Counted from the stretch's first letter, positions 1 through 14,094 are shown. The stretch: 15,188 nucleotides of DNA from Bacteriovoracaceae bacterium (GCA_049599895.1 JBMYPC010000075.1:1-15188); one strand, 5' to 3'. A program made the numbers and translations. Notes: generated by a model from the sequence alone, not told the origin.

Positions 1-4
1 ATCC

Positions 5-610
5 ATGACACTTTTTCGTTGTTCAGTATTAAAGAAAAGAAATTCAAATAAGTTTCTTGATACTCCTGATGAAGTTTATGCTGTAGGAGAAGTTCTTGAT
101 GAGATAGATTGGCCAGATCATTTTAAAAGAACTGGTGGGATCACTTCTCAGGGAGTAACGAGATTTGGCCCAAAGGGATATGATACCTGGCCACTATACG
201 CTAGTGAAAAAGATGATACTAGTTTTTATGAGTTTGCTTATTGGAAGCTCAAAGATTGGGAAAATGAGTTGGGGATGCAGACTAATGCAAGCCTTATTAG
301 ATTAGAATTTCATCCAGATAATAAACCAATTGATGTACAGGGCGAATCTAATAAAGCTCAAATACTAGATACTAAGACCTATGCTCATTCTCATCAATGG
401 ATTAAAAGCTTACCTAGTATTCCAGAGTCCGTTTCTTATTCTTCTGTGCGTGATCCGCAAGGCGGAGGAATCAACTTTGCTGTATATGAAGAAAGTGCAG
501 TTTCAAATTTTTCATTTTATCAATCAGTAACGATGATAATAAGAGACGAGTTCAATGTTGAAGTCATCTTTCCAAATAAAACTAAAGTTACTGTTACACC
601 AATAAAATAA
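5..610 (+). CDS. RES-domain protein (putative NAD+-consuming toxin family)
   Basis: 201-aa ORF with the RES motif order: 'TRF..G....LYASE...SFYE' (R, E) and 'YSSVRDPQGGGINFAVY' (S). Any cognate Xre/MbcA-type antitoxin would lie upstream, outside the window. Confidence 0.75.
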   Translation: MTLFRCSVLKKRNSNKFLDTPDEVYAVGEVLDEIDWPDHFKRTGGITSQGVTRFGPKGYDTWPLYASEKDDTSFYEFAYWKLKDWENELGMQTNASLIRLEFHPDNKPIDVQGESNKAQILDTKTYAHSHQWIKSLPSIPESVSYSSVRDPQGGGINFAVYEESAVSNFSFYQSVTMIIRDEFNVEVIFPNKTKVTVTPIK

Positions 611-625
611 GTATAAAGTTTTCAC

Positions 626-773
626 TGACGGATAACCGTCATCTTCCAACCGATGGTATTCACTTTAAAACTCTGAAATCCCCTTGGCTTGTGACGGAAA
701 GCCGTCACTTACTAAATTATTAAAATTAAAAAGAAGAGCTGATTTAAGCCTTTTTATTGTCGGGCATCCGACA
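626..773. promoter_or_regulatory. Three TGWCGG-N4-CCGWCA palindromes at exact 66-bp period (putative operators)
   Basis: TGACGG-ATAA-CCGTCA 626-641, TGACGG-AAAG-CCGTCA 692-707, TGTCGG-GCAT-CCGACA 758-773. Confidence 0.65.
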
Positions 774-827
774 GCGACTAGTTTTTCAATTATGAAATTT
801 TAACCATTTATACTCATCATATTTTGT

Positions 828-1139
828 GCCCTCGAGGATGTGAGCTATTTCTATAAGGAAGTAGAATGGATCGATACTCTCTTGGCCAATCCAAAAGTTC
901 ATATTGTGACGGCGGCAGGGAATAGTGGAGTGCAACTTCATGAAAATAATCAATGTAATGTCTATCTAGCTTGTCTTCGATTCAAGCTCTCAAAGAAAGA
1001 GAAGTTTCATATTGTAGGAAGTACAGATGGTAAATTCAATCAAGGAAAAGTTTTAACAGCCAGAAGACCATCAAGCTTTGGCCTTGAAAATGGGACGAGT
1101 ATTTCAGCTGCTAGATTCGCCTCGGAGCTGATAGACTAG
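828..1139 (+). pseudogene. 5'-truncated S8 subtilase-like gene (copy A), paralog of 8814-9470
   Basis: ALEDVSYFYKE...VTAAGNSG...CNVYLACL...NGTSISAARFASEL aligns with the C-terminal half of the 8814-9470 product. In-frame stop at 801-803; the N-terminal half carrying the HGT motif is absent. Confidence 0.8.
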
Positions 1140-1142
1140 AGC

Positions 1143-1322
1143 TAATCTTTTGAATTGAAGTGAGACCTTAGTCCTGAACCTGTCGGAAGAAGCCCGCCTA
1201 AAAAGGAAGAAGAGAGAGTAAGGAGGGGCTATGCTTTTACACTAAGCAAGTATTGTGAAAACCGCATGAAGTTTTTGATAGCGATTAGTAGAGTCAGTCT
1301 TTGTATGAGCTTCTTTGAAAGG
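1143..1322 (+). ncRNA. Candidate structured non-coding element (copy A)
   Basis: Shares ordered blocks TAATCTTT, CCTGAA, CGGAAGA, GAGAGAGTAAGG, GTGAAA-N-CCGCA, GCG-N-TTAGTAG, GTCAG, CTTTGT with 9468-9652; sequence-divergent hairpins lie between the blocks. Strand assumed from flanking genes. Confidence 0.5.
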
Positions 1323-1342
1323 AAAAAGTATGTAATACACAA

Positions 1343-1463
1343 ATGCCTGTGATCCTCAGATATAAAAATGTCAAAATATGTATTTTCCCTGATGATCATG
1401 GCCAAGTACCTCGAGCAAAGAGTCGAAATTTTACTGGAGGCTTGGAATGAATACCAAAACTAA
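1343..1463 (+). pseudogene. DUF4160-like putative toxin with frameshifting internal deletion
   Basis: Not in the ORF track. ATG 1343 reads MPVILRYKNVKICIFPDDHG (DUF4160-type start). Another frame reads KYLEQRVEILLEAWNEYQN* to TAA 1461-1463 (typical end), overlapping the antitoxin start. The middle of the domain is missing. Confidence 0.65.
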
Positions 1464-1719
1464 GAAAAAAGACATTGAATACGGAGACGTCGAAGTTGAT
1501 CTTCCTTCAACTTGGAACTCTAATGAGACGAAAGTTAGAATCACAACTTTTCTCGACGAAGACCTTCTCATCAAGATCAAAGAAGAGGCAAATGCTCAAG
1601 GGAAAAAATACCAGTCACTTCTTAATGAGAGATTGAGGGAAGTCTTTATGGGTGAGGAAGGCTTAGAGACACGGCTCAAGAAGCTTGAGGAAGAAGTTTT
1701 CAAAAAGAAAATGGCCTAG
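1447..1719 (+). CDS. BrnA/CopG-like ribbon-helix-helix antitoxin
   Basis: 'KVRITTFLDEDLLIKIKEEANAQGKKYQSLLNERLRE' fits the BrnA-family pattern; GGAGG RBS upstream. Confidence 0.8.
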   Translation: MNTKTKKKDIEYGDVEVDLPSTWNSNETKVRITTFLDEDLLIKIKEEANAQGKKYQSLLNERLREVFMGEEGLETRLKKLEEEVFKKKMA

Positions 1720-1738
1720 AGCTAGAAGGAATAAGCAA

Positions 1739-2098
1739 ATGGAATTGGCTGTCGATAGGTTTGAACTTTCATTGAAGAAAAAATGGGTTATCAGGTTTGC
1801 TGCTTTAACAAGTCTCATCCTTTGCACAATCTCTCTTAAAGAATTTGGTGAACCTCGTCCTTATTACCTTAGTATTGCCGCAGGATTCATCAACTCGTTA
1901 TTTTTGAATGCATCAATCATCTTTTGCGCTTTTAAAATTCCAAGAGGGAAGTTGAGATATCTAATGGCCCTTGGGGTTTTTCTCTCAGGCCTAGGAGTAT
2001 TTATTATTATTGCCTATGGATGGACAGTCGCAACTATTGCACTGGTCTTTCATTTATGGCTTGTCTATGAGCTTCTTTCACAAAAGAGCTTCAAGTGA
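1739..2098 (+). CDS. Small ~4-TM membrane protein (copy A)
   Basis: Start moved to ATG 1739 (AAGGA upstream) by alignment with 10378-10740 (MEL......KKKW.IRFA ... FHLWL.YELLSQK); four hydrophobic stretches. Confidence 0.8.
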   Translation: MELAVDRFELSLKKKWVIRFAALTSLILCTISLKEFGEPRPYYLSIAAGFINSLFLNASIIFCAFKIPRGKLRYLMALGVFLSGLGVFIIIAYGWTVATIALVFHLWLVYELLSQKSFK

Positions 2099-2340
2099 CA
2101 AGTTTTTGGAGACCAGATTTACTTGCCAAAGAAGCTCGTGACGAAGCCTATGAGTATTTTGACAAAAATATTCGTCCACTTCCTAAAAAATCAGATGGAA
2201 CGATTGATATCGCTGCGTTTGGGTTAGAAAACAATGATATTGATGCTTTTAGGCATGCTCACGTTAGTGGAGTTTTTACTATAGTCTATAGCGAATCAAC
2301 GGCAGATATTTTTGGTCGTCTCAATGAGTATTCTCCTTTT
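2095..2340 (+). pseudogene. 3'-truncated DUF6973-like protein (copy A)
   Basis: 65 of the first 79 aa identical to the 10737-11396 product by manual count, including DAFRHAH. Homology stops after RLNEY; the ORF runs on to a stop at 2364 in unrelated sequence. Confidence 0.85.
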
Positions 2341-2345
2341 TCTTC

Positions 2346-2492
2346 CAGTCAATTAGAAAGATAGTGAAAATGAGATTAAAAAATATAGGAATTGAAACAA
2401 GTCGATTAACTTGTCACTCTATGAGACATACTGCTGTAACCCTTAGTCTCTTAGGAGGGAGCGGACTTCAAGAAACAAAAGAACTCGCGCGC
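2346..2492 (+). pseudogene. Internal fragment of a tyrosine recombinase/integrase
   Basis: Not in the ORF track. Reads QSIRKIVKMRLKNIGIETSRLTCHSMRHTAVTLSLLGGSGLQETKELAR: the H-x-x-R box II motif, ending just before the expected H and catalytic Y. Confidence 0.8.
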
Positions 2493-3039
2493 TGGAAAAT
2501 GGATTTTTACAAGCGGAACACTCACCATTGAGAGGGCCTACTTTTTTATCTTTTTCACAGATGCCAACCCCTACGTTTCCATGCAGAAATAGGAGGTCAG
2601 GCATATTTTCTTCGCTTAAATATCCGTTGCGTCTATATGCCTGGATTAAGAATGAGTCCCAATTAAAAGTAGCGATAGTGTCTTTTGCTCTAAGCGAACA
2701 AACTAGGTAGTCATAGATTGTGACTACATCAGGAAGTCTTAATTCTGAAAAGTAATTAAAGATAGCATCTTCCATCTCTCTGCATAGATCAGAATATTTT
2801 TTTTGGGAGTAGAGACTAGAAAAAAGACTCTCAAATCCAATCCCATCATACTTTATAGAATACTTATCAAGAATTGAGGTCATACCTACCGTCTTAACGA
2901 AATGCTCATCCATTAGTGGAAGATGGCGATTGTTAGAATCACCATTAGGACATGCCGCTTTACTGGCCCCTGCACCTAAAACAACTAGATGGGGGGCATG
3001 GAGTATATTGAGTTTTCGGTCGTATGGTGGAAGTTTCAT
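2493..3039 (-). pseudogene. 3'-truncated SIR2-like (SIR2_2) protein
   Basis: Motifs VVLGAGAS, TFNWD, LHGNV followed by a Cys cluster. After CSACKNPFS the ORF reads into the antisense of the integrase fragment and stops at 2443. Confidence 0.75.
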
Positions 3040-3088
3040 AGGTCTAACTTAACAAACCTTCCCATTTTTGGGAAATTCTTAAATAGAT

Positions 3089-3131
3089 CCACTCTATAAA
3101 AGTCTAATTATTTTAGATGCTTATAGAGTGG
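3089..3131. repeat. Inverted repeat in the divergent intergenic region
   Basis: CCACTCTATAA (3089-3099) / TTATAGAGTGG (3121-3131) with inner TCTAA/TTAGA pairing. Confidence 0.6.
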
Positions 3132-3152
3132 CAAAAGCCTCTGAACTAGAAA

Positions 3153-3230
3153 TTACGCAAGTTTGAGTAATTCCTTGATTTCTTACGCAGTTTTGCGTAA
3201 TATTGAAATATGTTACGCAACTTTGCGTAA
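3153..3230. promoter_or_regulatory. Three TTACGCA-N4-TGCGTAA palindromes at exact 30-bp period
   Basis: 3153-3170 (one mismatch, TGAGTAA), 3183-3200, 3213-3230; directly upstream of the ATPase start. Confidence 0.75.
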
Positions 3231-3252
3231 ACTAAAAATGGATAGGAATAGC

Positions 3253-4488
3253 ATGGCAAGAGTAAAAAACCCCTTTATCACCGATTCAATAGTTGACGGA
3301 GAAGACTATTGTTCAAGGCAAGTATTGGAAGAAAGGATTTTGACCAAGCTAGAAAGTGGGCACAAGTTGGCTTTAATTGGAGATCGGAGAATTGGTAAAT
3401 CATCCACTGCTCACTATGTAATCGACAATATGAAAGGCACTTATAAAGTTGATGTTGACCTCTATCATGTTGCTGATGCCGCCGATATAGCTGAGGCAAT
3501 AATTGATGCCTGTAAAAAAGTCTTGGATGAAGTATGGGATTCCAAAAAGGTCTTAGACATGGCCAAAAGTGTGAAGCCTAAGTTGGAAGTAGCACCAGAT
3601 GGATTTTCTCTAGGGTTTGACACTAGGCCAAAAGAGTTTAGAAAAACTCTTAACATTGCTTTTGAGTTTTTAGATGAAACTATCAAACGAACAAAAAGAA
3701 AAATAGTTATCTTATTTGATGAGTTTCAGGCAATCAAAGAAGTTAAAGATGGTGATGCAATACTTAAATATATGAGGGGGAAAATCCAAAAGTTGAATAG
3801 AATACCCATCATGTACGTTGGGAGTATTAGGCATGAAATGGACAGCATATTTAGAGATCAAAGCTCTCCATTTTTTAAGCAAACAGAGATTATCTACTTT
3901 GAACATATAGAGAAAGATATTTTCTATCAATTTGTTTCTAAGAAGTTTCAGAAAAAGAAAATAACCATTAAGGAAGTAGTCTATGGGCATCTCTATGAAA
4001 TATGCTATGGAATTACTGGTGATATTCAGCAGTTTTGTAGAGTAGCTTTCGATAGTTTAAAGGAAAATACAACAATAGATTTTGATACCTTCTTTTATGT
4101 AATGGAAATTATCTACAAAAATGAGTTTAAATACTTTCAAGCAACGATTGAGGGAAAAGAACTCACAAAAGTTCAACAAAACTTTTTACTTCAAATAGCA
4201 AATGCTCAACACCAAGAAGGAACTAAACTGTTTGGCCAAGAAATCCAAAAAGCTTCTGGTGTTAAAAGTCCTGGCACACTTAGAAATGCTATGATTGCCC
4301 TAGAGAAAAAGGGTCATATCTATAAAAGTGAAGACAGATATTGTTTTTCAAACCCTTTCTTTAAAGAATGGCTTTTGGATTACAAGTTGGTAATTCGAGC
4401 AACAGCCGGAAACTTGGTTGCCGGAGGAGCTATCGCTGGCACTAGGCTTGATTTTGGGCATAGAGAGAGGATAAAAAAACAGCAATAA
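3253..4488 (+). CDS. AAA+/archaeal-type P-loop ATPase with probable C-terminal winged helix
   Basis: NPF N-terminal motif, Walker A GDRRIGKSS, Walker B ILFDEFQ, YVGS, C-terminal 'ALEKKGHI...Y.FSNPFFKEWL'. ATG 3253 with AGGA upstream preferred over the TTG at 3163. Confidence 0.85.
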   Translation: MARVKNPFITDSIVDGEDYCSRQVLEERILTKLESGHKLALIGDRRIGKSSTAHYVIDNMKGTYKVDVDLYHVADAADIAEAIIDACKKVLDEVWDSKKVLDMAKSVKPKLEVAPDGFSLGFDTRPKEFRKTLNIAFEFLDETIKRTKRKIVILFDEFQAIKEVKDGDAILKYMRGKIQKLNRIPIMYVGSIRHEMDSIFRDQSSPFFKQTEIIYFEHIEKDIFYQFVSKKFQKKKITIKEVVYGHLYEICYGITGDIQQFCRVAFDSLKENTTIDFDTFFYVMEIIYKNEFKYFQATIEGKELTKVQQNFLLQIANAQHQEGTKLFGQEIQKASGVKSPGTLRNAMIALEKKGHIYKSEDRYCFSNPFFKEWLLDYKLVIRATAGNLVAGGAIAGTRLDFGHRERIKKQQ

Positions 4489-4505
4489 AAACAAAGAAGA
4501 TATGG

Positions 4506-4593
4506 ATGACCTCCTTCCCAAACTCGAGTGCTGGTTAACTCATGCAAAAGGTGATTTGATCACGCAGTTACAAACGGGATTTAAGGAGGCCAT
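4506..4593 (+). ncRNA. Structured IS110 left non-coding end (bridge-RNA-like segment; RBS-sequestering stem)
   Basis: ATGACCTCCTT 4506-4516 pairs with AAGGAGGCCAT 4583-4593; inner TAACT/AGTTA and GTGAT-TTG-ATCAC stems flank internal loops; lies directly before an IS110-type N-terminus. Confidence 0.45.
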
Positions 4594-4595
4594 TA

Positions 4596-4742
4596 ATGGG
4601 AAAAATAATGTATTTTGCAGTGGATGTCGATGATAAAAACTTTCATGCTTGTGGAATTAGCGAGGGAGCTAAGTCATCAGAAACTATATTAAAGTTTAAA
4701 ACTCGTCCAAATGCTGGAGCTTTAGCTAAAAAGTTAAAAGAA
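4596..4742 (+). mobile_element. IS110-family recombinase N-terminal fragment
   Basis: MGKIMYFAVDVDDKNFHAC...FKTRPNAGALAKKL resembles the start of the DEDD RuvC-like domain; strong AAGGAGG RBS. Confidence 0.6.
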
Positions 4743-5532
4743 GCTGATATTACAAATGTTAGTACTTTTGATATGGGTGAAGACGAGATCATTGAATTTT
4801 ACCGGCAAAGAGCAACAGCAGAGAACTATATTCGGGAACAGAAGTACGGGTTTGATTTTCTTAATTTTCCCTGTCAAAAGCTGAGAGCGAATCAAGTATT
4901 TGGGCAAGCAGGGAGCATTACTCACAACCTTATACGCGCGTTGAGTTTTATGATGAAGCAGAAAGTAAAAAAAGTTAAGGGGAAAGATGGAAAGCGACGA
5001 GTAGTCACCCAGCTTGGATATTTTTCAAAAAAAGTAAGAAGTGAACTGATAAAAATTGCTGGCAAAGTTGTCAGCAGTGCTCGCAAAATCAAACTGCGAC
5101 TGAGTCGCCACAACTGGGAGGTGTTTGAAAAGATGATGTTAAAAATCAACGAAACTAAGCAAAGGTACGTTCCGTACAAAACCTTGAGCGAGCTCTTTAA
5201 CAATAGAATATTGGAACGACCAACTTAGCTACCGTCTCCAAGGTAGACGCCACCTAAAGAGCGTCTTTGAGAGGTAATTTTCAACTCTCGAGAAGAAATA
5301 ATTTTGAAAATAGGAGGAGATAAAAAGTTATGAAAAATAACTGACGGACAGGTTTGTAAAAAGCTGAGATTGAATAACGACTTTGGTGACAAAGCACGAC
5401 GATGAAAAAGTAGAGAAGAGTTTTTTATAGATTTTTGAAGTGAGTATGGCGAAATTGGGCGCACGTATCCGTACCTGTTTAACGCCAATCGGTTGTGACG
5501 TATGTTGCATGCTGGCTATTCGCGGATTTGAG
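4743..5532 (+). mobile_element. IS1380-family transposase C-terminal fragment (stop 5228) and probable right end
   Basis: 'ITN...IIEFYRQRATAENYIREQKYGF...FPCQKLRANQ...HNL...LIKIAGKVVSSARKIKLRL' is the IS1380 C-terminal signature. The right boundary (…CGCGGATTTGAG 5532) is a guess. Confidence 0.75.
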
Positions 5533-5625
5533 TTTTAGACTTAACACTTCAAAAAGACTAGGCTTTGTTGTCCGTCTTAAGTTGGTTACACCTCACAATA
5601 TGATTAAGAAGTCATCACTTTGATG

Positions 5626-5680
5626 TTGTCGGCAAATTATCGGCAATTGCCGTGATTTTGCGTGATTTCTAGTGATGTTT
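5626..5680. repeat. Integrase arm-type-like and 10-bp periodic repeats
   Basis: TTGTCGGCAAA / TTATCGGCAAT tandem (5626-5647), CGGCAATTGCCG palindrome (5641-5652), GTGAT at 5652, 5662, 5672. Confidence 0.5.
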
Positions 5681-5719
5681 GAAAGATGAACTGAACGTAA
5701 CTACTGGATACCTTTAGTT

Positions 5720-5757
5720 AAAAAAAACGGAAACTTATAAAGTTTCCGTTTTTTTTT
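5720..5757. terminator. Bidirectional rho-independent terminator
   Basis: A8-CGGAAACTT-ATA-AAGTTTCCG-T9. Confidence 0.8.
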
Positions 5758-5764
5758 GCTTTCT

Positions 5765-5794
5765 AAAATGGCGGGAGCGGAAAGCGACGAACCC
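5765..5794 (-). other. tRNA-3'-end-like remnant / putative att core (copy 1)
   Basis: Minus strand GGGTTCG-N8-CGCTCCCGCCA has T-arm-to-CCA spacing like a tRNA-Asp 3' end and is followed by the terminator. AAAATGGCGGGAGC (5765-5778) recurs exactly at 13662-13675. Confidence 0.5.
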
Positions 5795-5939
5795 TAGCGT
5801 CAAAGTGCGTAGAAAACGATCAATGTCAGGGGAAAATCTGAACTCTCAAACTAAAAGATTAGGGTAGGGCCTGTTTTTCTTCTTGTTGCGGCGGGACAAA
5901 ACTCTAATGCGATGATAGGCTTCTTGAAAGGAAGCTAGA

Positions 5940-6974
5940 ATGGAACTGTTAAAACCACATAAACTAAACAAGGGCGACACAATAGGAGTTTTCACTCCCT
6001 CTTCTCCTGCCTACAAAGCAAATGAAGAGCTTTTCACTAACGGAGTCAAAAACATTGAAAGGCTTGGCTTCAAAGTAAAGCTAGGTTCTTTGACTAAAGA
6101 AAGATCAAGCCAGGGGTACAGGTCAGGAACGCCAAAAGAACGAGTCGAAGAGTTCATGGACCTCATTCGAGATGATAGTGTGAAGGCCCTCATTTCAACG
6201 ATAGGTGGAATGAACTCTAACAGTATGATTCCCTTTCTTGACTTTGATTTGATTCGAAAAAAAAGAAAAATCATTTGTGGTTACAGCGATGTGACTTCTC
6301 TTCATCTTTCAATCCTAAAGTACTCTGGACTCAAAACTCTCTACGGCCCAGCAATAATGACCTGGTTCGGGGAATATCCAAATGGAATTGAAGAAAGCAT
6401 CAGCTCATTTCTCATGGCCACTACGAACTCCTCGGATAACGAAAGAGAATTTCTACCGTTTCCTAGATGGAGTAACCATTTCAGGGATTGGTCTAATGGA
6501 GACTGGAAAAACATTCCGAGAGAATGGAAAGAAAATAAAGGCTGGAAAGTTCTCAATGCAGGAAGTGTCACTGGAGAAATTGTTGTTGCAAACCTAAACA
6601 CGTTGATGAGTTCTGCTGGAACAGACTACTTTCCTAATATCGAGGGTAAGATTCTTTTGATTGAAGAAATGTCTGCTCCTTGGTCCAAAGAAGAAAGAAG
6701 TCTTCGACAGCTCCAGCTGATGGGAGTTTTTGATAAGATTTCCGGGCTCATAATGGGGAAACCTGAAATGCCAAACGACGAAGGTGCTCCATTTGGACTG
6801 AACGAGCTTTTGATGGAAGTTGTTGGTGTGAGAACATATCCAATAGTTTCAGAATTTGACTGTTCACATACAATTCCAATGCACACGATAGGAATGCGTT
6901 CCAAGGTTAGTCTGGAAGCAAGCTCAGACTATGATGTAAAATTTAAAGCCTTGGAGTCCTTTGTTGAAAATTAA
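5940..6974 (+). CDS. S66 family LD-carboxypeptidase / MccF-like peptidase
   Basis: LNKGDTIGVFTPSS, STIGG, GYSD (catalytic Ser), LLIEE (Glu), FDCSHT (His); intact 344 aa. Confidence 0.93.
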   Translation: MELLKPHKLNKGDTIGVFTPSSPAYKANEELFTNGVKNIERLGFKVKLGSLTKERSSQGYRSGTPKERVEEFMDLIRDDSVKALISTIGGMNSNSMIPFLDFDLIRKKRKIICGYSDVTSLHLSILKYSGLKTLYGPAIMTWFGEYPNGIEESISSFLMATTNSSDNEREFLPFPRWSNHFRDWSNGDWKNIPREWKENKGWKVLNAGSVTGEIVVANLNTLMSSAGTDYFPNIEGKILLIEEMSAPWSKEERSLRQLQLMGVFDKISGLIMGKPEMPNDEGAPFGLNELLMEVVGVRTYPIVSEFDCSHTIPMHTIGMRSKVSLEASSDYDVKFKALESFVEN

Positions 6975-7081
6975 AAGAGATTGATTTTTCTCAAAACTGA
7001 CAAATTCCTCGCAAAAACTTTGGGCCTTTTTTCCTGAAGCTGGTAATTATTTTTTATTACGAACAGCAAACAGGAAAAATA

Positions 7082-7483
7082 ATGGCCAAGCTCACCTACA
7101 ATCTTGAGAGACTCGAGAAGTGCATCTTCTCTCTCTACGATGACATCAAAACAGCAGATGACATTCTGAAAACTTGGGACATTGACGAGAGTGGAATTGA
7201 GAAAGCTTGGGAAGAACTCACCGTAGGAAAAGTTCTCATTGGTGGCTCTCCTCTGAGTAGAATCCGATTGCTGGATTGTTGGAAGTGGGAGCACATTGTG
7301 GACCCGCCTCTTGATGACGAGTACCAACCCTTATGGGAGGAAGCACAAGACTGCAAGGAGATCATCGACAGGGGTGATGACCTCTGCTCTCTCCTTCTCA
7401 TTTTTGCCATAGAAGGTGGCGACCCATCTCAGTTCATTGTCGATGATGAGAGCTTGCGACCTGAGTTTTTGAGGAATGGATGA
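7082..7483 (+). CDS. Acidic hypothetical protein
   Basis: 133-aa ORF, CAGGA upstream, first gene of a co-directional cluster; no recognised motif. Confidence 0.7.
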   Translation: MAKLTYNLERLEKCIFSLYDDIKTADDILKTWDIDESGIEKAWEELTVGKVLIGGSPLSRIRLLDCWKWEHIVDPPLDDEYQPLWEEAQDCKEIIDRGDDLCSLLLIFAIEGGDPSQFIVDDESLRPEFLRNG

Positions 7484-7575
7484 ACTCTCAGTCAAAGAAA
7501 GAGAAGTCTCGGATTTTTGGCGGAGGTCTCAGCTTCACCATTAGGCTCCCTCGTTTACCCTTCGATGAGAAGACT

Positions 7576-7899
7576 ATGGAAGATGATTTTGATTTTGGAA
7601 AGAACCTCGAGAAATTGATTCTCGCCAACTATTCAAGCATTGCTAGTTTTGCAAGAGACATCAATCTCAACGCCAAGACAGTGCAAGAATGGTGTGGTGG
7701 TGGGGCTAGGTTTCCCTCCAAACCAGAATATCTTCGTGTGATGGCAGAAGCCTTGAGAGTGACAGTTCACGAGTTGATGTTTGGCTGCCTCGACAAGAAT
7801 GAACCACTTGGCTCCGCTCTTGAAAAAACAGAAATCCACACAGGGCTGTATGAAATCACCATCAAGAAAGTGGATGTCAAAGACAGGGGGGAAAAATGA
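7576..7899 (+). CDS. Cro/C1-type HTH transcriptional regulator
   Basis: 'FGKNLEKL...SIASFARDINLNAKTVQEWC.G...P...LRVMAEALRVTVHELMFG'. ATG 7576 preferred; the overlapping ATG 7480 is possible. Confidence 0.8.
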   Translation: MEDDFDFGKNLEKLILANYSSIASFARDINLNAKTVQEWCGGGARFPSKPEYLRVMAEALRVTVHELMFGCLDKNEPLGSALEKTEIHTGLYEITIKKVDVKDRGEK

Positions 7900-8444
7900 G
7901 AGCAATATTTTTGATTATGGCCTTTGTGTTTGCAAGAGGAGCCCTTGCTGACAACTTCAAGGGATACGACCCAAAGTACAAAAAGCAAGTAGAGAAGATG
8001 AGAAAGTTCGTCTCTGATAAGAACAAATGCTTTGCTAGCGTATGGGCCATAGCTGATGTTTCTATCAAGCACTATCTCCCTGGTTACGCTCGGACTGTCT
8101 ACTGCTTCGCCGATTTGATTTTAGACAAGGGGAGTATCAATGAAAAGAATGGTTGTATGCTTGTCAATTACAGAGTGGACAATAACCAGTACCATCTCAT
8201 TGTGCAAAAGCCTTTTGACGTTCCTGTAGTGAAAAAGAAATGTGCTCAAGGTGGCTTCGAGGAACTGGTTCAGAAAAAAGGAAATTGGTATCCCATCACA
8301 GGAGGAAAACCATTTACGGTGGAGAAGTTTCTTTTCGGAAGTGTCACCGTCCCAAGGAATAGAATTGACATTCACCTCATCAATGCCAAAACAAACAAGG
8401 CCAGAGAGTACGTTTTGAAGAAGATTGCGGAAGGTGAGAAATGA
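7896..8444 (+). CDS. Secreted Cys-containing hypothetical protein
   Basis: Signal peptide MRAIFLIMAFVFARGALA-D; four Cys; ATGA overlap with the HTH gene. Confidence 0.75.
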   Translation: MRAIFLIMAFVFARGALADNFKGYDPKYKKQVEKMRKFVSDKNKCFASVWAIADVSIKHYLPGYARTVYCFADLILDKGSINEKNGCMLVNYRVDNNQYHLIVQKPFDVPVVKKKCAQGGFEELVQKKGNWYPITGGKPFTVEKFLFGSVTVPRNRIDIHLINAKTNKAREYVLKKIAEGEK

Positions 8445-8830
8445 GAACTCTCTTTTTCTTGATGACATTTTCACTAGAGCTATTGGCGAGTGAGTATGTC
8501 TATCACCCCAAATGGATGGCCATCTACAAAGGACTATACGGCTCAACAATTCTCACAAGAATCAACAACGACTATGGCTGGAAGGTTCCTCATCACGATT
8601 GCAAAGCAGAAACAGTGAAAGAACTTAAGGCTGGGAGCTACCATCGCAAACTCACCTGCAAAGAAAAGTCTGTGCTTCTTGAATGCAAGGCTAAAGATCA
8701 AGAAGTGACAAAGTGTGATGTGGAACTAGCTGGAGTGACTTTGCACTTAGAGATACGAAGGTTTTTGACGATGAGAGCTTTGAGAAAAAAACAACTCAAA
8801 GAAGAACTTGAAAATGAGATCCCTTATTAG
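8441..8830 (+). CDS. Secreted Cys-containing hypothetical protein
   Basis: Signal peptide-like MRTLFFLMTFSLELLA-S; four Cys; ATGA overlap with the previous gene. Confidence 0.75.
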   Translation: MRTLFFLMTFSLELLASEYVYHPKWMAIYKGLYGSTILTRINNDYGWKVPHHDCKAETVKELKAGSYHRKLTCKEKSVLLECKAKDQEVTKCDVELAGVTLHLEIRRFLTMRALRKKQLKEELENEIPY

Positions 8831-9470
8831 GACTTGTTTTCTTCTCATCATCATTCTGTCAGCTATCTCCTGTGATCACAGAAAAAGAATTGTCATTTTG
8901 GAAAGTGGAGTTAATGTCACCGAAAAGCTGAAACCATTTCTCTGCAATAACGGTCACAGAAGCTTCTTGAAAGGACAAGCTTGGAATAAAGATGAAACAG
9001 GTCACGGGACAACTATATTAGAAGTTCTCTCTCAAAAGTTGGACCCCAACAAACATTGTATTCTTGTCTATAAGACAACTGATAGGAAAGCACGAGCTTA
9101 CGAATATGCAATGGCCTTAATTGAATTGCAAAGAGTTGATTTTGAGGTTCTGCTTCTCGCCCTCGAAGACGTAGGGTACTTCTACAAAGAAATTGGTTGG
9201 CTTGATTCGATTTCCTCAAGATCAAAAGTTGTCGTAGCGGCAGGGAATGGAGGAGTGGAGCTAGGAAATAAGAAAAGCTGTAATGTGTATCCAGCCTGTC
9301 TCATTCACAAGATAGATAACCAAAAGAACTTCTTTGTCATTGGCTCGAATGACAGAAGATTTAACTATGGAGAAATCATCAAAGAGAAAAGAAACCCCAA
9401 TCACAAAGACCAATCAGGAACAAGCATTTCTGCTGCAAGATTCGCCAGCGAACTAATGGCACAAGACTAA
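8814..9470 (+). CDS. Minimal S8 subtilase-like lipoprotein (copy B)
   Basis: Lipobox-like SAISC; IVILESGV (E in place of the catalytic D), DETGHGT (His), VAAGNG (oxyanion Asn), SGTSISAA (Ser); ~218 aa with no propeptide. Confidence 0.8.
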   Translation: MRSLIRTCFLLIIILSAISCDHRKRIVILESGVNVTEKLKPFLCNNGHRSFLKGQAWNKDETGHGTTILEVLSQKLDPNKHCILVYKTTDRKARAYEYAMALIELQRVDFEVLLLALEDVGYFYKEIGWLDSISSRSKVVVAAGNGGVELGNKKSCNVYPACLIHKIDNQKNFFVIGSNDRRFNYGEIIKEKRNPNHKDQSGTSISAARFASELMAQD

Positions 9471-9652
9471 TCTTTCTTTCAGGCCAGGTGTAAACCCTGA
9501 ATCCAACGGAAGAGTCCGGGCGTGAATGCTGACAGGGAGGTGGAGAGAGTAAGGGAGCACCTTGTGCCCACGGAGGCTACGTCGTGAAACCCGCAATCCC
9601 GAGGTTGCGCTTAGTAGGTCAGGCCTTTGTTGGCACGCTCATAGCAAAGAGG
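9468..9652 (+). ncRNA. Candidate structured non-coding element (copy B)
   Basis: GC-rich island with hairpins GGT-GTAA-ACC, CGGA-AGAG-TCCG, CCTT..AGG, CGCAATC-CCGA-GGTTGCG, CTTTGTT..AGCAAAG and a possible closing stem CCTGA/TCAGG. Linker blocks are conserved with 1143-1322. Confidence 0.55.
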
Positions 9653-9724
9653 ATAAAATTTAAATCTGAAATGAGGTAACTACCTAATATTCCAATATAA
9701 ATCTTCTGTCTGAAACTATAGGTA

Positions 9725-9753
9725 GTGACAAGGTGTACACCTTGTGGTACTCT
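9725..9753 (+). promoter_or_regulatory. Sigma70-like TA promoter with 18-bp palindromic operator
   Basis: GTGACA (9725-9730)-17 bp-TACTCT (9748-9753); perfect palindrome ACAAGGTGTACACCTTGT 9728-9745 with a TGTACA core as in yefM-type operators. Confidence 0.7.
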
Positions 9754-9774
9754 TCGGGTTATCAGGAGATTTCT

Positions 9775-10035
9775 ATGCAAAATGTAAATCCAAAGAAGCT
9801 AAGAGCAGAATTGAAGGACTATTTGGACCTAGCTTCTGGCGAGCCAATTCGCATTCAACGTAGAAGCGGAGAAAGCTATGTCCTCATCAATGAGGATGAT
9901 TTTTCAGAAATGAAAAATGAGATAATGTCTCTTCAAAAAAGGTTACTGGCCATGACAGAGGTGGTAGATAAAAAGGTTGAAGAGTATCAACCCGGAGATC
10001 GCAATCGTTTGAAGCGTCTCAAGAAGAAAGCATAA
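9775..10035 (+). CDS. Phd/YefM-family antitoxin
   Basis: 'VNPKKLRAELKDYLDLASGEPIRIQRRSGESYVLINEDDF'; AGGAG RBS before ATG 9775. Confidence 0.85.
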   Translation: MQNVNPKKLRAELKDYLDLASGEPIRIQRRSGESYVLINEDDFSEMKNEIMSLQKRLLAMTEVVDKKVEEYQPGDRNRLKRLKKKA

Positions 10036-10377
10036 GTGGTCAAATTTTATTTCACTAAAAATTATTCTAAAGAGCTGGAAAGAATTGAAGATTTTATTCT
10101 TGAGTCAACTGAAAGCATAGAACTGGTTGAAAAATTCCTGGATGAACAAGATCAAACTCTCGAGTTCATTTCTCAAAACCCAAAAACTCCGGCTATTCAC
10201 CCAACCACAGGGGATCAGTCTTGGGTTTTCTCCGATGGGAGATATAGGCTCTTTTTCAAAGTTACTCACAAAGATGACGATCTTGAGGTTTTTCTCCTGC
10301 ATATCATAGACAATAGAGAAGCTAATTTAAAAGTTTATCCAGGGAATAACCTCCCCACATATTACGAGGAAGAATAG
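10036..10377 (+). CDS. RelE/ParE-family toxin
   Basis: 'FYFTKNYSKELERIEDFI ... YRLFFKV ... VFLLHIIDNR'; GTG start abuts the antitoxin stop. Confidence 0.75.
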   Translation: MVKFYFTKNYSKELERIEDFILESTESIELVEKFLDEQDQTLEFISQNPKTPAIHPTTGDQSWVFSDGRYRLFFKVTHKDDDLEVFLLHIIDNREANLKVYPGNNLPTYYEEE

Positions 10378-10740
10378 ATGGAGTTAACTATTAGCAGTAT
10401 GAACTTTCTCTTTAAAAAGAAATGGGCCATTAGATTCGCTACAGTGACAATTTTCATCATTTGTACGATCTCTCTTGCTAGTTTCAACTTGTATCGTCCA
10501 TTACATATTCGTGTGATTTCAGGTTTGATTGATTCATTTCTGTTAAATTCCCCCTTATTTGTTTGTGCAATGAGAATTTCGTCTGGAAAATTCAAGTATT
10601 TACTCGCTTTTGGAGTTCTTCTGTCTAGCTTGGCAGGTTTACTTCTTGTTGTTCGTCAAGGATGGCCATTGGGTATAATGTCTACGGCTTTTCATTTATG
10701 GCTTATTTATGAACTGCTTTCACAGAAGGGTCGCAAATGA
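10378..10740 (+). CDS. Small ~4-TM membrane protein (copy B)
   Basis: Paralog of 1739-2098; abuts the toxin stop and overlaps the next gene (ATGA). Confidence 0.8.
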   Translation: MELTISSMNFLFKKKWAIRFATVTIFIICTISLASFNLYRPLHIRVISGLIDSFLLNSPLFVCAMRISSGKFKYLLAFGVLLSSLAGLLLVVRQGWPLGIMSTAFHLWLIYELLSQKGRK

Positions 10741-11396
10741 CAAGTTTATGGCGACCCGACTTACTTAGCGATGATGCTCGTGATGAAGCCTATAGGTATT
10801 TTGACAAAAATATTCGCCCTCTTCCCAAAAAGGCTGATGGAACGATCGATACGACAGCATTTGGGTTAAGTGATAATGATGTTGATGCTTTTAGACATGC
10901 CCACGTGAGCGGGGTTTTAACTATTGTCTATAGTGAGAATACAGCAGACATATTAGGTAGGTTGAATGAATACAGACCTCTTGATTTGTATTCAAACTCA
11001 AGAGATCCGAAGTCTCTCAATATGGACCTTTGGAATAACAGTGTTGGAAGAAAATATGGCAAGAAAACAAAAGATAGAAAAGAATTGCTCAAACTTATTC
11101 ACAAGGCTTTGGATAATGGAGAACTCATTATCGACCCTAAGAACGACAAACGAATTTATGAGGGAGCAAGCCACGACCCAGTCAATAAATCAAAACCTGT
11201 GATTGTTTTGACTGAGGATGAAAATGGAAGAAATCAGACCTTTCTTGATCTCGTCAGAAACCAAGTTCTCACAAGAGAAGAGTTTGTTTCTCAAATTGAG
11301 GCTAAAAATTACCCTGGCTATACAGTAAAACAAATCAACGGAGTCCCAACTCCAGTTTCAAATCCAGATGGAAGACGCACAAACAATTTGAGTTAG
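10737..11396 (+). CDS. DUF6973-like (DAFRH...DLWNN) protein with DUF3892-like C-terminus
   Basis: DAFRHAHVSG and MDLWNNSVGR motifs; C-terminal 'TREEFVSQIE...Y.V..ING..TP.SNPDG...NNL'. Confidence 0.7.
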   Translation: MTSLWRPDLLSDDARDEAYRYFDKNIRPLPKKADGTIDTTAFGLSDNDVDAFRHAHVSGVLTIVYSENTADILGRLNEYRPLDLYSNSRDPKSLNMDLWNNSVGRKYGKKTKDRKELLKLIHKALDNGELIIDPKNDKRIYEGASHDPVNKSKPVIVLTEDENGRNQTFLDLVRNQVLTREEFVSQIEAKNYPGYTVKQINGVPTPVSNPDGRRTNNLS

Positions 11397-11399
11397 CGG

Positions 11400-11423
11400 G
11401 CTCAAAATCACTTGATTTTGAGC
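11400..11423. repeat. Perfect 11-bp inverted repeat between convergent genes
   Basis: GCTCAAAATCA-CT-TGATTTTGAGC; an extra GCTCAAAA half-site at 11446-11453. Confidence 0.65.
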
Positions 11424-11461
11424 TTGAGGCCTTAAAGGGAAATTTGCTCAAAAACTTTCAG

Positions 11462-11785
11462 CTAAGACTTACGGGCCTTTTTTACTTTTCGCAAAAAAAC
11501 TTCGTAACCACGAGACTCAAGTTCTTCGACGAGGGCATCGTTGTCAAAACCACTGAGCGCTGAATCTAAGTTTCCAATCTCGGGAAGCTTCTTGTTGTAT
11601 TCCAAGTAAACCTTCTTGAACTTTTCCCAGGTCTTCTTGTTCATCTTCCCACTTTTGTGGGTAACGTGCCAAAAACCGCCTTTAGTAAGGCCAATTTTTT
11701 TACCAACTTCATTTTTACTTAGTGGAATCTCATCAAGCATATCAATCACTGTCTGCTTGCCAATGAAGACCATCTTTCTTTCCAT
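11462..11785 (-). CDS. Putative HTH repressor (phage/satellite-like)
   Basis: ATG 11785 with CAGGAG RBS gives 107 aa; 'LSKNEVGKKIGLTKGGFWHV' is HTH-like; C-terminal 'LSGFDNDALVEELESRGYEV'; divergent from the helicase gene. Confidence 0.65.
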   Translation of the reverse strand: MERKMVFIGKQTVIDMLDEIPLSKNEVGKKIGLTKGGFWHVTHKSGKMNKKTWEKFKKVYLEYNKKLPEIGNLDSALSGFDNDALVEELESRGYEVFLRKVKKARKS

Positions 11786-11876
11786 AGAAGAACTCCTGTC
11801 CCGTAAAATATTGTACCTCAAATAACTGAAATAGCAATAATTGGTAAAAATAAACACAGTCCGACCCGCAAAATAC

Positions 11877-11905
11877 TTGACCATTGAAAATGGAAATTGT
11901 AGCTT
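11877..11905 (+). promoter_or_regulatory. Sigma70-like promoter
   Basis: TTGACC (11877-11882)-17 bp-TAGCTT (11900-11905). Confidence 0.6.
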
Positions 11906-11907
11906 GC

Positions 11908-12034
11908 CTTCCGTAATAACGCGTGGCCGGAAGCCTGCCCGAGCTGACAGGGGTCCTAGGTAAAGGAGTCTTCCAAGGCCGAGACAGAACGACGGACCCC
12001 ATTGCTCCCTTTGGGAAACCAGAGGGAGCTTTTT
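11908..12034 (+). ncRNA. Structured leader / small RNA ending in an intrinsic terminator
   Basis: CTTCCG/CGGAAG stem, GGGGTCC (11950-11956)/GGACCCC (11994-12000) stem, then the terminator at 12004-12034. Confidence 0.55.
12004..12034 (+). terminator. Intrinsic terminator / attenuator just before the helicase RBS
   Basis: GCTCCCTTTGG-GAAA-CCAGAGGGAGC-TTTTT, then AAGGAG (12038-12043) and ATG 12049. Confidence 0.75.
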
Positions 12035-12048
12035 GAAAAGGAGAGCAG

Positions 12049-12591
12049 ATGCAAGACAACGAAAAAACGCCAATGGAAAAGAGTGAGATTCCTGATGTGG
12101 TTGAACATTTCAAAGCGGGAATGGAGAGACACGGAAGACTACAGGGAAAGAAGGAGCTCATCGAGGAAGTAGAGGTCAACGAGAAGTACGATGGTATTCA
12201 AGAAGAAATTCAGACCAGAGACAAAATTAAGAGACTGAGTTTAGAGACTCCCAAAAAGGAAGACGTAGAAAGATCTTATGACCTAGTCGAGCGAGATCGA
12301 ATGCTTGCAAGAAAAGCAGGAAAGCCATTCTATACAGTCTTTGGAGATTGGTTCCCTGCTATGCCAAACACTGTCACTGGTATTTTTGCAAAGACTGGTG
12401 ATGGAAAATCTACTTTCGTGGCCAATCTCGCTGTTCTTGCCTATGAAGCGAAACTCAAAGCATTGGTAGTCTCAAACGAAGAAACAGTTGAGATTCAAAT
12501 GGTAAGGGCGGCAGCAACTTCTCTTGGTAAACCTTTTCGAGGAATAAGCAAATTTACTGATGAAGAAATCAAGGAACTCAAGGAGGAAGCC
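12049..12591 (+). pseudogene. 3'-truncated DnaB/RecA-like (SF4-type) helicase
   Basis: Walker A GIFAKTGDGKSTFVANLA and LVVSNEE; no Walker B. Beyond ~12591 it reads antisense to the S41 gene until the stop at 12651. Confidence 0.7.
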
Positions 12592-13431
12592 CTTTTTTCT
12601 GTCATACTTCCAATTAGTTGTCTCTATTGGCTTAGTGTAAAACTCTTCTAGTTCACCCTTTAGGGATTTTTCCATCAACACTGAATTTTCCTTTAGGTAG
12701 AGATCAAGTTGAGTAATCATATTTTTGTTCTTCGTATTTGATTTGAGCACTCGAAGGTAGTTCTCCCAAATAACTAGAGTTTCAGGTGTTCTTCTTCGAA
12801 CATCAGGAGCAATTGGTGTCTCAATGTTTTGCCCTGCTAATTTCTCGGCCATTTCATATCCTATGGAGTCGTCACCTCCTCCATTCCCACGAAGGTCGAT
12901 GATGATGGCCTTTGCTTTTTTGACGGCTTCATCGAGAAAGTCGTGAAATCCAGGCCATTTCCCTGGAGTGAATTTTGAAATAGCTATGGTGTAGACCTTG
13001 TCGCTAGATATGATACCTTTCCACGGCTTCTGTGTGTCGTTTTTGTTTTTCCCAACATCAACTAATTTGATATTCGGTCGGTAACAGAATGTTCCCTTGT
13101 ATTTGGCTTTGAGGTGGTGGTCTGGAAAATCACTGAGAACTTTTCCGATCTTTTGACAAAGCTCTTTAGAGTTACTGATGAGTTCGAGATTTTGTAGTTT
13201 TTTATCGACGGACTTAAAAATGCTTTCGTCTATAGTACCTTTGCCTCCATAGGCTCGTTCAAGGGCATATCGAAGAAAGAGGATGTCTTCTTGAAACTCT
13301 ACTGGGTTAACCTCTGATTTGTATTTCTTAGAAAAGTCTTCAATTCGTAGAGAGTTATAGGATAGGTTTTTGAATGTATTTGTCGAACAAGCTGTCATTG
13401 TAACTATAGTTAAAAGGAAAATTTTTTTCAT
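12586..13431 (-). pseudogene. 3'-truncated S41 family peptidase lipoprotein
   Basis: Lipobox-like MTAC, D.HL, IIIDLRGNGGG; no catalytic Ser (AS-type) region. After DRKKGF it reads antisense to the helicase until the stop at 12472. Confidence 0.8.
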
Positions 13432-13617
13432 AAGGTTTTTTACACATTGTTTGTCTATTCGTCATTTTGTTTGCCACTCGTAAATTCGGGCCAGTAAGAA
13501 CTGCGAACAGAAAAAAAGCGCAACTCTGCACCCCTGTTTTTCGCCCTCAGGGTGAAAGGCATCCACGGGTTCGCCGAACCCGGCTGCAGCATCGCTTCTG
13601 GCGATGTCGCTTTGTGA

Positions 13618-13755
13618 AAATTGATTGATTTCGAGAGCTTGACCCCGCTCTCAGGGGTTCGAAAATGGCGGGAGCAAGTGGACGATTTTAGAACCGTGTG
13701 TAGGGAGTTATTTGTCCACAAAAACTCTGACTTTTTAGAAGGTAGGGTTTTATGA
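13618..13755 (+). pseudogene. Possible C-terminal remnant of a large serine recombinase overlapping att core copy 2
   Basis: Reads KLIDFESLTPLSGVRKWREQVDDFRTVCRELF...*, a W..VD.FRT-type tail recalled from element-borne serine recombinases. Contains hairpin GACCCC..GGGGTT and AAAATGGCGGGAGC (13662-13675). Confidence 0.4.
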
Positions 13756-13967
13756 AGCTGGTTGATGAACTTAATTTAATTTTAATCGAAGACTTAAAGC
13801 TAAATAAGCAAGTTAGAGTGATTAGGTCTGAAATTAAAGATAAGGATTTGTCGCGGAGTGTCTTGTTGTCTCTATACCACGTTGTGAAGAGGCTTATGAA
13901 TGAGTTTCCAAAACATAGAAAAACACTGACCCCCTTAAAAGATTCAATAAAAAAACGATTGAACTGA
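13752..13967 (+). CDS. Small basic hypothetical protein
   Basis: 71-aa ORF with ATG and purine-rich upstream sequence; no recognised motif. Confidence 0.45.
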   Translation: MKLVDELNLILIEDLKLNKQVRVIRSEIKDKDLSRSVLLSLYHVVKRLMNEFPKHRKTLTPLKDSIKKRLN

Positions 13968-14094
13968 GTTATCTGGTCAAAAAATTACTCATCTATCAAA
14001 AATTTTTATCTATGCGATAATCTAAGCATAATAATTTTAAGTAATTAGAGACTTTGAATTTTGTCAGTTTCTTGCAACTACAAGGAGGTAGTTG

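Follow-up and report, generated by a model that had tools for sequence, protein, structure and literature searches.

The stretch of DNA analysed here (the window) is 15,188 nucleotides (nt) long and comes from a Bacteriovoracaceae bacterium (GCA_049599895.1, JBMYPC010000075.1:1-15188). The Bacteriovoracaceae are predatory bacteria, and the window is the entire contig C75 of its own genome (G000; 3.27 Mb in 266 contigs). One order of parts is present twice, at 816-2364 (copy A) and 8814-11396 (copy B): a gene resembling subtilases of family S8, a non-coding element, a slot for toxin-antitoxin (TA) genes, a gene for a small membrane protein, and a gene of Pfam family DUF6973, here called Min-Wnt. 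The copies lie 8.3-8.6 kb apart on this one contig. The order combines two separable modules, a membrane protein and Min-Wnt pair found across the family and a rare module of mini-subtilase and RNA. Judging from the sequences and structural models, we think that the repeat is probably the joined cargo of two related islands, with a predicted anti-phage effector as its terminal pair. The parts of the two copies, with protein lengths in amino acids (aa), are as follows.

816..1139, + strand: copy A mini-subtilase, C-terminal half, a pseudogene (tblastn to residues 112-215 of copy B, 48%)
1140..1322, + strand: copy A conserved non-coding element, partly decayed (RNA model match at 1170-1299, a training sequence of the model)
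1343..1463, + strand: copy A slot, remnant of a DUF4160 toxin gene, 110 nt deleted internally (alignment to the intact L111:2099-2329)
1447..1719, + strand: copy A slot, CopG/BrnA-like antitoxin, intact (Pfam CopG_antitoxin E 2.3e-5, BrnA E 4e-4, both under cut-off)
1739..2098, + strand: copy A 119-aa membrane protein (3 predicted transmembrane segments)
2095..2364, + strand: copy A truncated Min-Wnt (homology stops at 2340, aa 82)
8814..9470, + strand: copy B 218-aa mini-subtilase, predicted lipoprotein, no propeptide (model confidence, pLDDT, 89)
9470..9655, + strand: copy B non-coding element of about 180 nt with a GAA/AGUA internal loop (alignment of three copies, RNA model)
9775..10035, + strand: copy B slot, antitoxin of the Phd/YefM kind (Pfam E 8.8e-7; 29 bits, cut-off 29.8)
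10036..10377, + strand: copy B slot, toxin of the ParE/RelE kind (above the cut-off of Pfam ParE_toxin, E 2.4e-6)
10378..10740, + strand: copy B membrane protein of 120 aa, a candidate partner for immunity or in an accessory role (3 predicted transmembrane segments)
10737..11396, + strand: copy B Min-Wnt (Lipocone; Pfam DUF6973), aa 1-145, with a weakly DUF3892-like tail, aa ~150-219

The doubled order and the slot before its terminal pair

The original prediction, made from the sequence alone, had described the same five-part order twice, with paralogous flanking parts around unrelated TA pairs, and our analysis agrees. Between the copies, amino acid identity is 48-50% in the C-terminal half of the S8 protein, 44-46% in the membrane protein and 79% over 82 aa of the DUF6973 protein, and one 300-nt stretch is 76% identical. 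Pfam assigns the slots to different families (CopG/BrnA-like in A, Phd and ParE in B). The families named for slot A, DUF4160-like and BrnA-like, were correct, but its toxin is only a remnant with 110 nt gone. An intact relative (L111 in genome G026; also L054) is a DUF4160 protein (Pfam E 9.5e-9), and the copy A antitoxin is 92% identical to its counterpart in L111. The slot B antitoxin and toxin genes are intact and adjacent; slot A has no intact toxin.

Copy B is intact and copy A is pseudogenised, with breaks in three of its five parts (the S8 gene, the slot toxin and the DUF6973 gene). No alignment of the copy A S8 gene to copy B exists upstream of 828; homology starts at about residue 112 of the B protein, so the half carrying Asp and His is missing. 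Likewise, homology of the copy A Min-Wnt ends at aa 82, so that both the C-terminal domain and helix 4, with Asp97, are missing. An assembly artefact can be set aside: positions 1-14979 recur with hardly a letter changed in contigs of run X1, which may be the source, and a separate study's run X2 gives exact pieces over 485-878 and 2300-2651 that span both truncation points of copy A.

Proteins matching DUF6973 were found in 63 of 237 family genomes. From the better-scoring of these we took 40 surrounding regions, with a preference for long contigs, which gave 41 anchors. A conserved five-part operon had been proposed, with a neighbourhood search as its check, and the search gave a divided answer: the whole order is not co-located elsewhere, and the last three parts recur with variable TA content. 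The mini-S8 gene, the genes at 7082-8830 and the RNA accompany none of the 41 other Min-Wnt anchors. The only other locus with both S8 gene and RNA, L008, carries homologs of the genes at 7082 (70%) and 8441 (29%), a frameshifted S8 gene, the RNA and tRNA-Asp, and is without a TA pair, membrane gene or DUF6973 gene. L006 has a more distant S8 gene without the RNA or the 3' genes. Conversely, L111 has an intact run of DUF4160 toxin, antitoxin, membrane protein and Min-Wnt, 83% identical to copy A, behind unrelated upstream DNA. The original prediction thus caught a repeat and a hotspot that are both real, while treating two modules as one and overlooking the death of copy A.

The TA-exchange hotspot is real and is anchored at the membrane and Min-Wnt pair, since 13 kinds of TA or defence genes precede partner and Min-Wnt at 24 of the 41 loci. 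These Pfam families are AEP-TOTE, AbiE, Fic, BrnT/CopG, DUF4160/BrnA, ParE, RES/Xre, HigB, HipA, Abi_2, JetD, HVO_A0114 and DUF4411/IrrE, from a scan that covered 120 of 144 listed upstream open reading frames (ORFs). Two further slots are probable cases and two lie at contig edges. The difference between slots A and B is not, then, a one-off replacement, in keeping with the exchange hotspot of the original prediction. In a control of the 25 loci with enough DNA, the slot held TA or defence families in 14, against no TA family in ORFs at least 8 kb upstream (48 proteins, with three restriction-modification matches and one lone nucleotidyltransferase), a comparison made at E 1e-8 for the control and 1e-4 for the slot, with two ORFs against two or three, among kin that are not independent.

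A tree of 39 Min-Wnt rows, from which three broken or partial anchors are left out, groups partner classes by clade, yet sister rows hold different slot content: L068 (HipA) and L069 (AbiE) share a partner class, as do L074 (HigB) and L063 (BrnT). Upstream of the slot no gene cluster is common to more than a few loci, and the S8 gene and RNA flank it only in this window. The genome itself holds a third version (L125, contig C10, 19972-25139) with mutM, a tyrosine integrase, TumE and HVO_A0114, a membrane gene and a frameshifted Min-Wnt. Nuclease-like and secreted genes also lie there, and its membrane protein differs from those of the window.

Min-Wnt and its partner genes

The last gene, which the original prediction had named only as DUF6973-like, encodes a Min-Wnt domain with an intact predicted active site, as read from its sequence and model; the parts of Burroughs, Nicastro and Aravind (2025, PMC12419801) covered here predict such proteins to be antiviral effectors. 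The model (pLDDT 90) has five helices (residues 7-25, 48-64, 67-79, 91-108 and 114-126) followed by three strands, a helix and two strands. A fold search returned BteO (Z 10.2, root-mean-square deviation 3.9, 120 residues aligned), WNT8A (Z 8.7, deviation 3.4, 118 aligned) and WntD (Z 5.9), with the qualification that Z under about 13 can be generic for helical folds. H54, E78, D97, N100/N101 and G104 occur without change in all 39 members compared. The Lipocone site consists of His, Glu and Asp with a polar residue and a capping Gly (PMC12419801), and the window residues fit this pattern, with His in helix 2, Glu in helix 3, Asp in helix 4, the polar residue and Gly.

No hydrophobic or signal segment was scored in the product of 10737-11396, so the protein is probably cytoplasmic rather than exported to the envelope, and the envelope location proposed earlier probably does not hold for this gene. 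Its tail is weakly DUF3892-like. The three strands followed by a helix match the description of that domain, PHROG 11939 matched the window protein (E 2.8e-15), and two true DUF3892 domains rank above 200 shuffles, narrowly, with a profile of the tail. According to the covered parts of PMC12419801, in which the example query is a Bacteriovorax Min-Wnt, animal Wnt is proposed to descend from bacterial proteins joining Min-Wnt to DUF3892, and these fusions are predicted to have an antiviral role, sensing infection and attacking lipid II or other carrier lipids from inside. We found one weak Min-Wnt match in plasmids and three distant matches in IMG/VR, and the name DUF6973 did not occur in the literature searched. 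A PADLOC scan, also proposed earlier, was run with the 2023 library on 18 window proteins. It gave no strong component match to any one named system, in line with the original prediction, only weak single matches such as PDC-M38A on Min-Wnt (E 6.4e-5).

Related domains occur in other arrangements. One protein, P0165, fuses a HicB antitoxin domain to a full Min-Wnt/DUF3892-like protein, on one contig where this may be read-through. P0166-P0171 carry Min-Wnt N-terminal to RTX repeats, as is also described in the covered parts of PMC12419801. On another island of the same genome (G000:C80, 5900-13100), two DUF3892-containing genes are each followed by a small membrane-anchored gene, beside a standalone Min-Wnt-like ORF (6569-6949) and TA-like genes.

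The stop of the copy B membrane gene overlaps the start of Min-Wnt. Directly upstream of the 41 anchors lies a gene for a small hydrophobic protein (2-4 predicted transmembrane segments) in 25 cases, an EEP-family enzyme in 3 and a divergent calcineurin-like phosphoesterase in 10. This phosphoesterase, of 256-265 aa, stands head-to-head with Min-Wnt at ten loci with almost no gap (L059, L060, L063, L067, L071, L073, L074, L076, L079 and L080); at L057 and L061 the arrangement is tail-to-tail. The other 17 small transmembrane partners were not clearly picked up by a profile built on the window-type membrane family (best E 6e-4), so their homology to that family is not established. The copy A membrane protein is 81% identical to that of L111, compared with 44-46% to copy B. 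L111 is a mosaic, its membrane gene being A-like (81%) and the N-terminal half of its Min-Wnt B-like (93%), which points to recombination between the two genes.

The mini-subtilase module and its non-coding element

The modelled copy B mini-subtilase has a subtilisin fold (E 4.9e-9, TM score 0.70), with His64, Asn145 and Ser204 present and Glu30 where the catalytic Asp is expected. Its N-terminus reads as lipobox-like, and there is no Pfam S8 match. A profile of the protein matched 1,100 clusters at E <= 1e-10, mostly of about 220 aa among the 150 matches listed. Genomes with a match, the window's own included, number 3 of 201 in the order and 1 of 401 in the phylum. Relatives lie among replication genes on the phage-like contigs L009 and L010 and, on viral contig L012, near a gene that we read as terminase-like although it has no family match. 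No match was found in cultured phages, and no close relative in IMG/VR. The gene is likely phage-derived, judging from these neighbours, and most of the wider family seems to lie outside chromosomes. At the Min-Wnt loci L075 and L076, two full-length subtilases of ordinary type lying 10 kb upstream were not counted, as the mini-S8 query does not match them. In the literature searched, a family of ~220-aa subtilases is not described. Copy B is preceded by four further genes.

7082..7483, + strand: 133-aa gene, no family, marker of the S8-RNA module (70% homolog two genes upstream of S8 in L008)
7480..7899, + strand: Cro/CI-like helix-turn-helix regulator (PHROG 8, E 4.7e-7)
7896..8444, + strand: predicted secreted protein, no family (hydrophobic segment scored)
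8441..8830, + strand: small protein with a signal-like N-terminus (29% homolog directly before S8 in L008)

All genes of copy B are co-oriented and several overlap. The original prediction had it led by a helix-turn-helix gene and two translationally coupled secreted genes; the regulator, the overlap and the signal-like N-termini are there, but a hydrophobic segment is scored only for 7896-8444, not for 8441-8830. The regulator gene and the 7896-8444 gene are both absent from L008. The product of the 7082 gene has no match in Pfam, NCBIfam, PHROG or PDB and no close relative in IMG/VR; it matches 3 of the 237 family genomes, and in G014 its homolog lies beside an 8441-like homolog. For two further 7082 homologs and S8 homologs the longest contigs have the same size (214,439 and 13,568), which suggests that the two genes travel together.

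In all three known copies (A, B and L008) the non-coding element begins at the S8 stop codon, and the elements of A and B align with conserved blocks. It is likely a structured RNA with compensatory changes, to judge from the aligned copies. The original prediction had called it structured; covariation bears this out, among three sequences only, and folding energy does not, with z-scores of 0.12 for B and 1.56 for A, and unremarkable values of 0.49, 0.30 and -1.26 in the three-copy comparison. A hand-drawn 15-pair structure leaves 89% of cells paired over the three copies, and 6 of the 15 pairs are changed on both sides, a figure that overstates the covariation because the structure was derived from the same three sequences. 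That count was reached by 2 of 500 shuffles, and slid controls gave 0-2. Most of the broken pairs are in copy A. Loop blocks, including the GAA/AGUA strands, which we take to be a loop E or S-turn motif, are invariant while the stems vary.

The element could alternatively be a decaying DNA relic, such as an intron remnant, a transposon end or a phage cis-site, rather than a working RNA. The unremarkable folding energies would suit a relic, as would the breakage of two of the three S8 genes that precede the element, and only three copies are known, the structure being drawn from them. Since a relic would have to account for pairs changed on both sides in a number that few shuffles and no slid control reach, and for invariant loop blocks beside varying stems, we regard it as a possibility to be kept in view and the less convincing account.

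Neither the full window nor three short stretches had a real match in Rfam (the best, FMN, reached 17.4 bits where 66.2 is the gathering threshold), and there was nothing relevant for the L008 element. A search of sequencing runs listed no RNA run that contains the element. A search of the 237 family genomes with the RNA pattern returned only the own genome and G195. Its 20 stretches in IMG/VR were treated as chance, none scoring with the profile (best E 0.31), nor did the 16 of them that were scanned a second time. Two matches to the RNA model were rejected, one in G216 (26.6 bits; 151 family genomes searched) lying antisense inside a 340-aa ORF and one on contig C100 of the own genome inside a 303-aa ORF. 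The genomes and IMG/VR searched thus contain no credible fourth copy, and in the literature searched an S8-linked RNA is not described. A GC-rich intergenic region at 11880-12045, between a divergent helix-turn-helix-like gene (11465-11803, - strand) and a truncated DnaB/primase-helicase gene (12049-12651), folds a little better than its shuffles (z -1.88) and has no Rfam match; it shares two short motifs with the copy B element, yet the RNA model does not match it.

Islands at tRNA-Asp and comparison with known systems

Two attachment-site (att)-like sequences mark the window.

5766..5778, + strand: att-like copy of the tRNA-Asp 3' end (reverse complement), a 13-mer between the copies
13663..13675, + strand: the other att-like copy of the tRNA-Asp 3' end, at the close of the island with copy B

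The 13-mer, expected by chance 1.5e-4 times per window, occurs four times in the genome: in tRNA-Asp on contig C33, twice in the window and once on C142. On C33, tRNA-Asp abuts a large serine recombinase whose frame runs into it antisense. That contig ends in Pfam positions 139-220 of a DNA methylase and the window ends in positions 1-115, so the adjacency of the two contigs is inferred from complementary halves. tRNA-Asp also follows the S8-RNA run of L008, some 340 nt further on and equally oriented; in G014 it has remnants of two genes from upstream of S8 (7082-like and 8441-like) beside it. The window is likely, on this sequence evidence, a tandem array of island remnants at tRNA-Asp, and the mobile-element setting of the original prediction is borne out by the two tRNA-Asp copies. 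No excision joint between the att sites was found among the contigs of four runs, in which rare forms are dropped. The DnaB-like fragment was found in no other genome among the 237, so no complete parent island was recovered.

Beyond the window, an att-like mark stands within 350 nt downstream of 13 of the 41 anchors: a copy of the mutM start at 8, a tRNA end at 2 and a shared motif at 3. L056 and contig C10 of the own genome carry small islands of mutM, tyrosine integrase, TA genes, membrane gene and DUF6973 gene. The mutM-start copies lie 117-158 nt past the Min-Wnt stop (L056, L062, L067, L070, L072, L076, L080 and L082), and L076 has four of them, a tandem array at mutM. The motif of about 17 nt common to L049, L068 and L069, 113-123 nt past the stop, is possibly a third att family.

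The rest of the window holds further genes. A RES-domain gene (5-610) opens it. The end of contig C201 nearly duplicates that gene's start, with an antitoxin-sized gene before it, and run X1 reads C201 letters at positions 40 and 52; the window thus probably extends leftwards into C201. Just past the truncation of copy A starts a fragment (2443-3039, - strand) with no Pfam or NCBIfam match and what are presumably SIR2-like motifs, next to a gene for an ATPase with a winged helix-turn-helix (3253-4488, + strand; weak PDC-S27 match). There follow a DDE transposase remnant (4596-5228), an intact S66 LD-carboxypeptidase (5940-6974), an S41 peptidase (12472-13431) overlapping the DnaB-like fragment at its 3' end, and an ApaLI-like restriction endonuclease with the split methylase (14092-15171). 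The C33 part of the methylase region (20714-25674) continues with two unknown ORFs and the serine recombinase.

We propose that two related mobile islands would have stacked in tandem at the tRNA-Asp site, and that the pair, last before the att site, would serve as a conserved recombination anchor; TA cassettes would turn over faster than the pair because of this role. Following predictions in the covered parts of PMC12419801, the C-terminal domain would sense infection, and Min-Wnt would cut off the phosphate-linked head groups that carrier lipids bear, lipid II for example, bringing the cell to arrest or death. The membrane protein may hold the enzyme in check or in place; in other clades an EEP enzyme or a calcineurin-like phosphoesterase takes its position and may act on the same phosphate-linked chemistry. 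The defence role that had been called possible is thereby likely, resting as it does on the predicted antiviral Min-Wnt. In the other module, the RNA may act in cis on the S8 transcript, and the lipoprotein subtilase may act in the envelope, most likely by cutting a phage receptor or an incoming phage protein (superinfection exclusion). A bolder proposal can be made only tentatively: that Min-Wnt, as the bacterial ancestor of Wnt and with swappable membrane or phosphoesterase partners, is a true anti-phage system anchoring a family-wide defence hotspot where small islands end and, in addition, that an undescribed structured RNA of about 180 nt is coupled to a large and likewise undescribed family of phage lipoprotein subtilases, propeptide-less and serving to exclude rival phages. 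If it holds, the unnamed genes in the slot become new defence candidates.

Several observations weigh against the reading of two modules with an anti-phage effector. Both window copies join S8-RNA to the TA, membrane and Min-Wnt genes, and that junction has therefore been inherited in at least one island lineage. The slot contains no TA or defence family at 13 of the 41 anchors, and the upstream control was run on the unequal terms given above. Three anchors have no partner of the classes described, 28 show no att-like mark by the three patterns used, and no overlap bridges C75 and C33. Foldseek found nothing at E <= 0.001 with the Min-Wnt model, whose Z values fall in the range that can be generic. 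DUF3892 scores weakly on the isolated tail (E 0.02, 15.8 bits against a cut-off of 22.3) and in only 3 of 39 Min-Wnt members (best E 0.0035), and a scan of the own genome with that family does not list the window gene. The four-transmembrane immunity proteins in the covered parts of PMC12419801 are tied to secreted Min-Wnt toxins, not to the DUF3892 fusion. BteO is reported, in the covered parts of its paper, to be non-enzymatic and toxic only in the periplasm (PMC12541434), which cautions against assuming catalysis. Finally, position 30 of the mini-S8 is Glu in the window protein and 7 of 12 close rows and Asp in 91 of 99 wider family rows; because Glu replaces Asp30, the protein may be a weak or inactive protease.

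The membrane protein and Min-Wnt could instead form an addiction pair of toxin and immunity protein that stabilises small islands and has no anti-phage role, the TA pairs next to it accumulating only through a tendency of island ends to gather such modules. The two genes are translationally coupled, one transmembrane family goes with a single Min-Wnt clade (support 97/95; 8 of 9 rows), and the pair is terminal beside att-like sites. The covered parts of PMC12419801 propose four-transmembrane proteins as Min-Wnt immunity proteins, and the HicB fusion of P0165 would also fit. However, a lethal toxin would be an odd thing to find with its partner replaced by an EEP enzyme (3/41) or a metallophosphoesterase (10/41), or missing upstream (3/41), and L111, which joins an A-like membrane protein to a B-like Min-Wnt, indicates that the pairing is loose. 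We consider this account unlikely.

Less probable still is a single operon in which protease, regulatory RNA, exchangeable TA pair and membrane/Min-Wnt effector work jointly in defence or antagonism. The same order in copies only 44-79% identical in protein implies a junction old enough to diverge, and the genes are co-oriented, several overlapping. Yet no other genome searched has the order, each part of it occurs without the other (L008 and L006 on one side, L111 on the other), and a sigma-70-like site at 9630-9659 separates the copy B RNA from its TA genes, a weak point as 0.8 such sites are expected by chance. That copy A is a local duplicate of B that later decayed after one TA swap, with no general hotspot, is suggested by their closeness on one contig and by the decay of A, but is largely refuted and very improbable given the far closer relatives of A in G026 (TA 92%, membrane 81%), the att-like sequence between the copies and the 13 kinds of slot content elsewhere.

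On our preferred reading of two modules with a predicted anti-phage effector, the anchor is already known computationally as an antiviral candidate, while the S8-RNA module is thinly sampled. At this locus the antiviral prediction becomes directly testable on a compact unit of two intact genes whose active-site residues are defined, with three classes of natural partner and dozens of variants supplied by nature; the slot, in turn, offers a set of defence candidates from a little-studied family.

Among known systems, the closest is the Min-Wnt-DUF3892 fusion of the Lipocone SAW clade (PMC12419801, parts covered), which shares the five-helix Wnt-like core, the His/Glu/Asp pattern, the absence of a secretion signal and the domain at the C-terminus, with three strands and a helix. 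That fusion is listed without a partner gene (Figure 5-source data 1), whereas the window type nearly always has one (membrane protein, EEP or metallophosphoesterase), lies at an island end and anchors a variable TA slot. Partners, terminal position and slot do not appear in the parts of that paper covered here; its Figure 5-source data 2 and a 2020 paper may list some. BteO, a type VI secretion effector of Bacteroides fragilis (PDB 9uu0), is the best fold match and the sole PDB sequence match under E 0.1, aligned across the RH, E and D-x-x-NN-x-x-G motifs. It is delivered to rival cells, binds OmpA in the periplasm and has a periplasmic immunity protein, according to the covered parts of PMC12541434, while the window protein has no signal and an extra C-terminal domain. 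BteO keeps His, Glu, Asp, Asn-Asn and Gly at the Min-Wnt motifs, and may be an unrecognised Lipocone with an intact site; the covered text of its paper contains neither 'Wnt' nor 'lipocone'.

The mini-S8 shares with subtilisin family S8 the fold (TM score 0.70) and the His, oxyanion Asn and GTS-Ser motifs, and differs in its length of only 218 aa, its lipoprotein-like N-terminus, the lack of a propeptide and Glu for the catalytic Asp. By Pfam family and two-gene layout the slots resemble ordinary type II TA systems of the Phd-ParE/RelE and DUF4160-CopG/BrnA kinds, except that the slot A toxin is broken. A hotspot beside Min-Wnt is not described in the literature searched. P2 phages and P4 satellites carry defence hotspots, with variable TA and defence genes at a fixed position beside conserved mobile-element genes, as seen here. 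Those hotspots have conserved genes flanking the slot on either side. In the hotspot described here, however, conservation is confined to the downstream anchor, which is a predicted effector in its own right, and the elements that host it are different ones, tyrosine-integrase islands at mutM and islands at tRNA genes.

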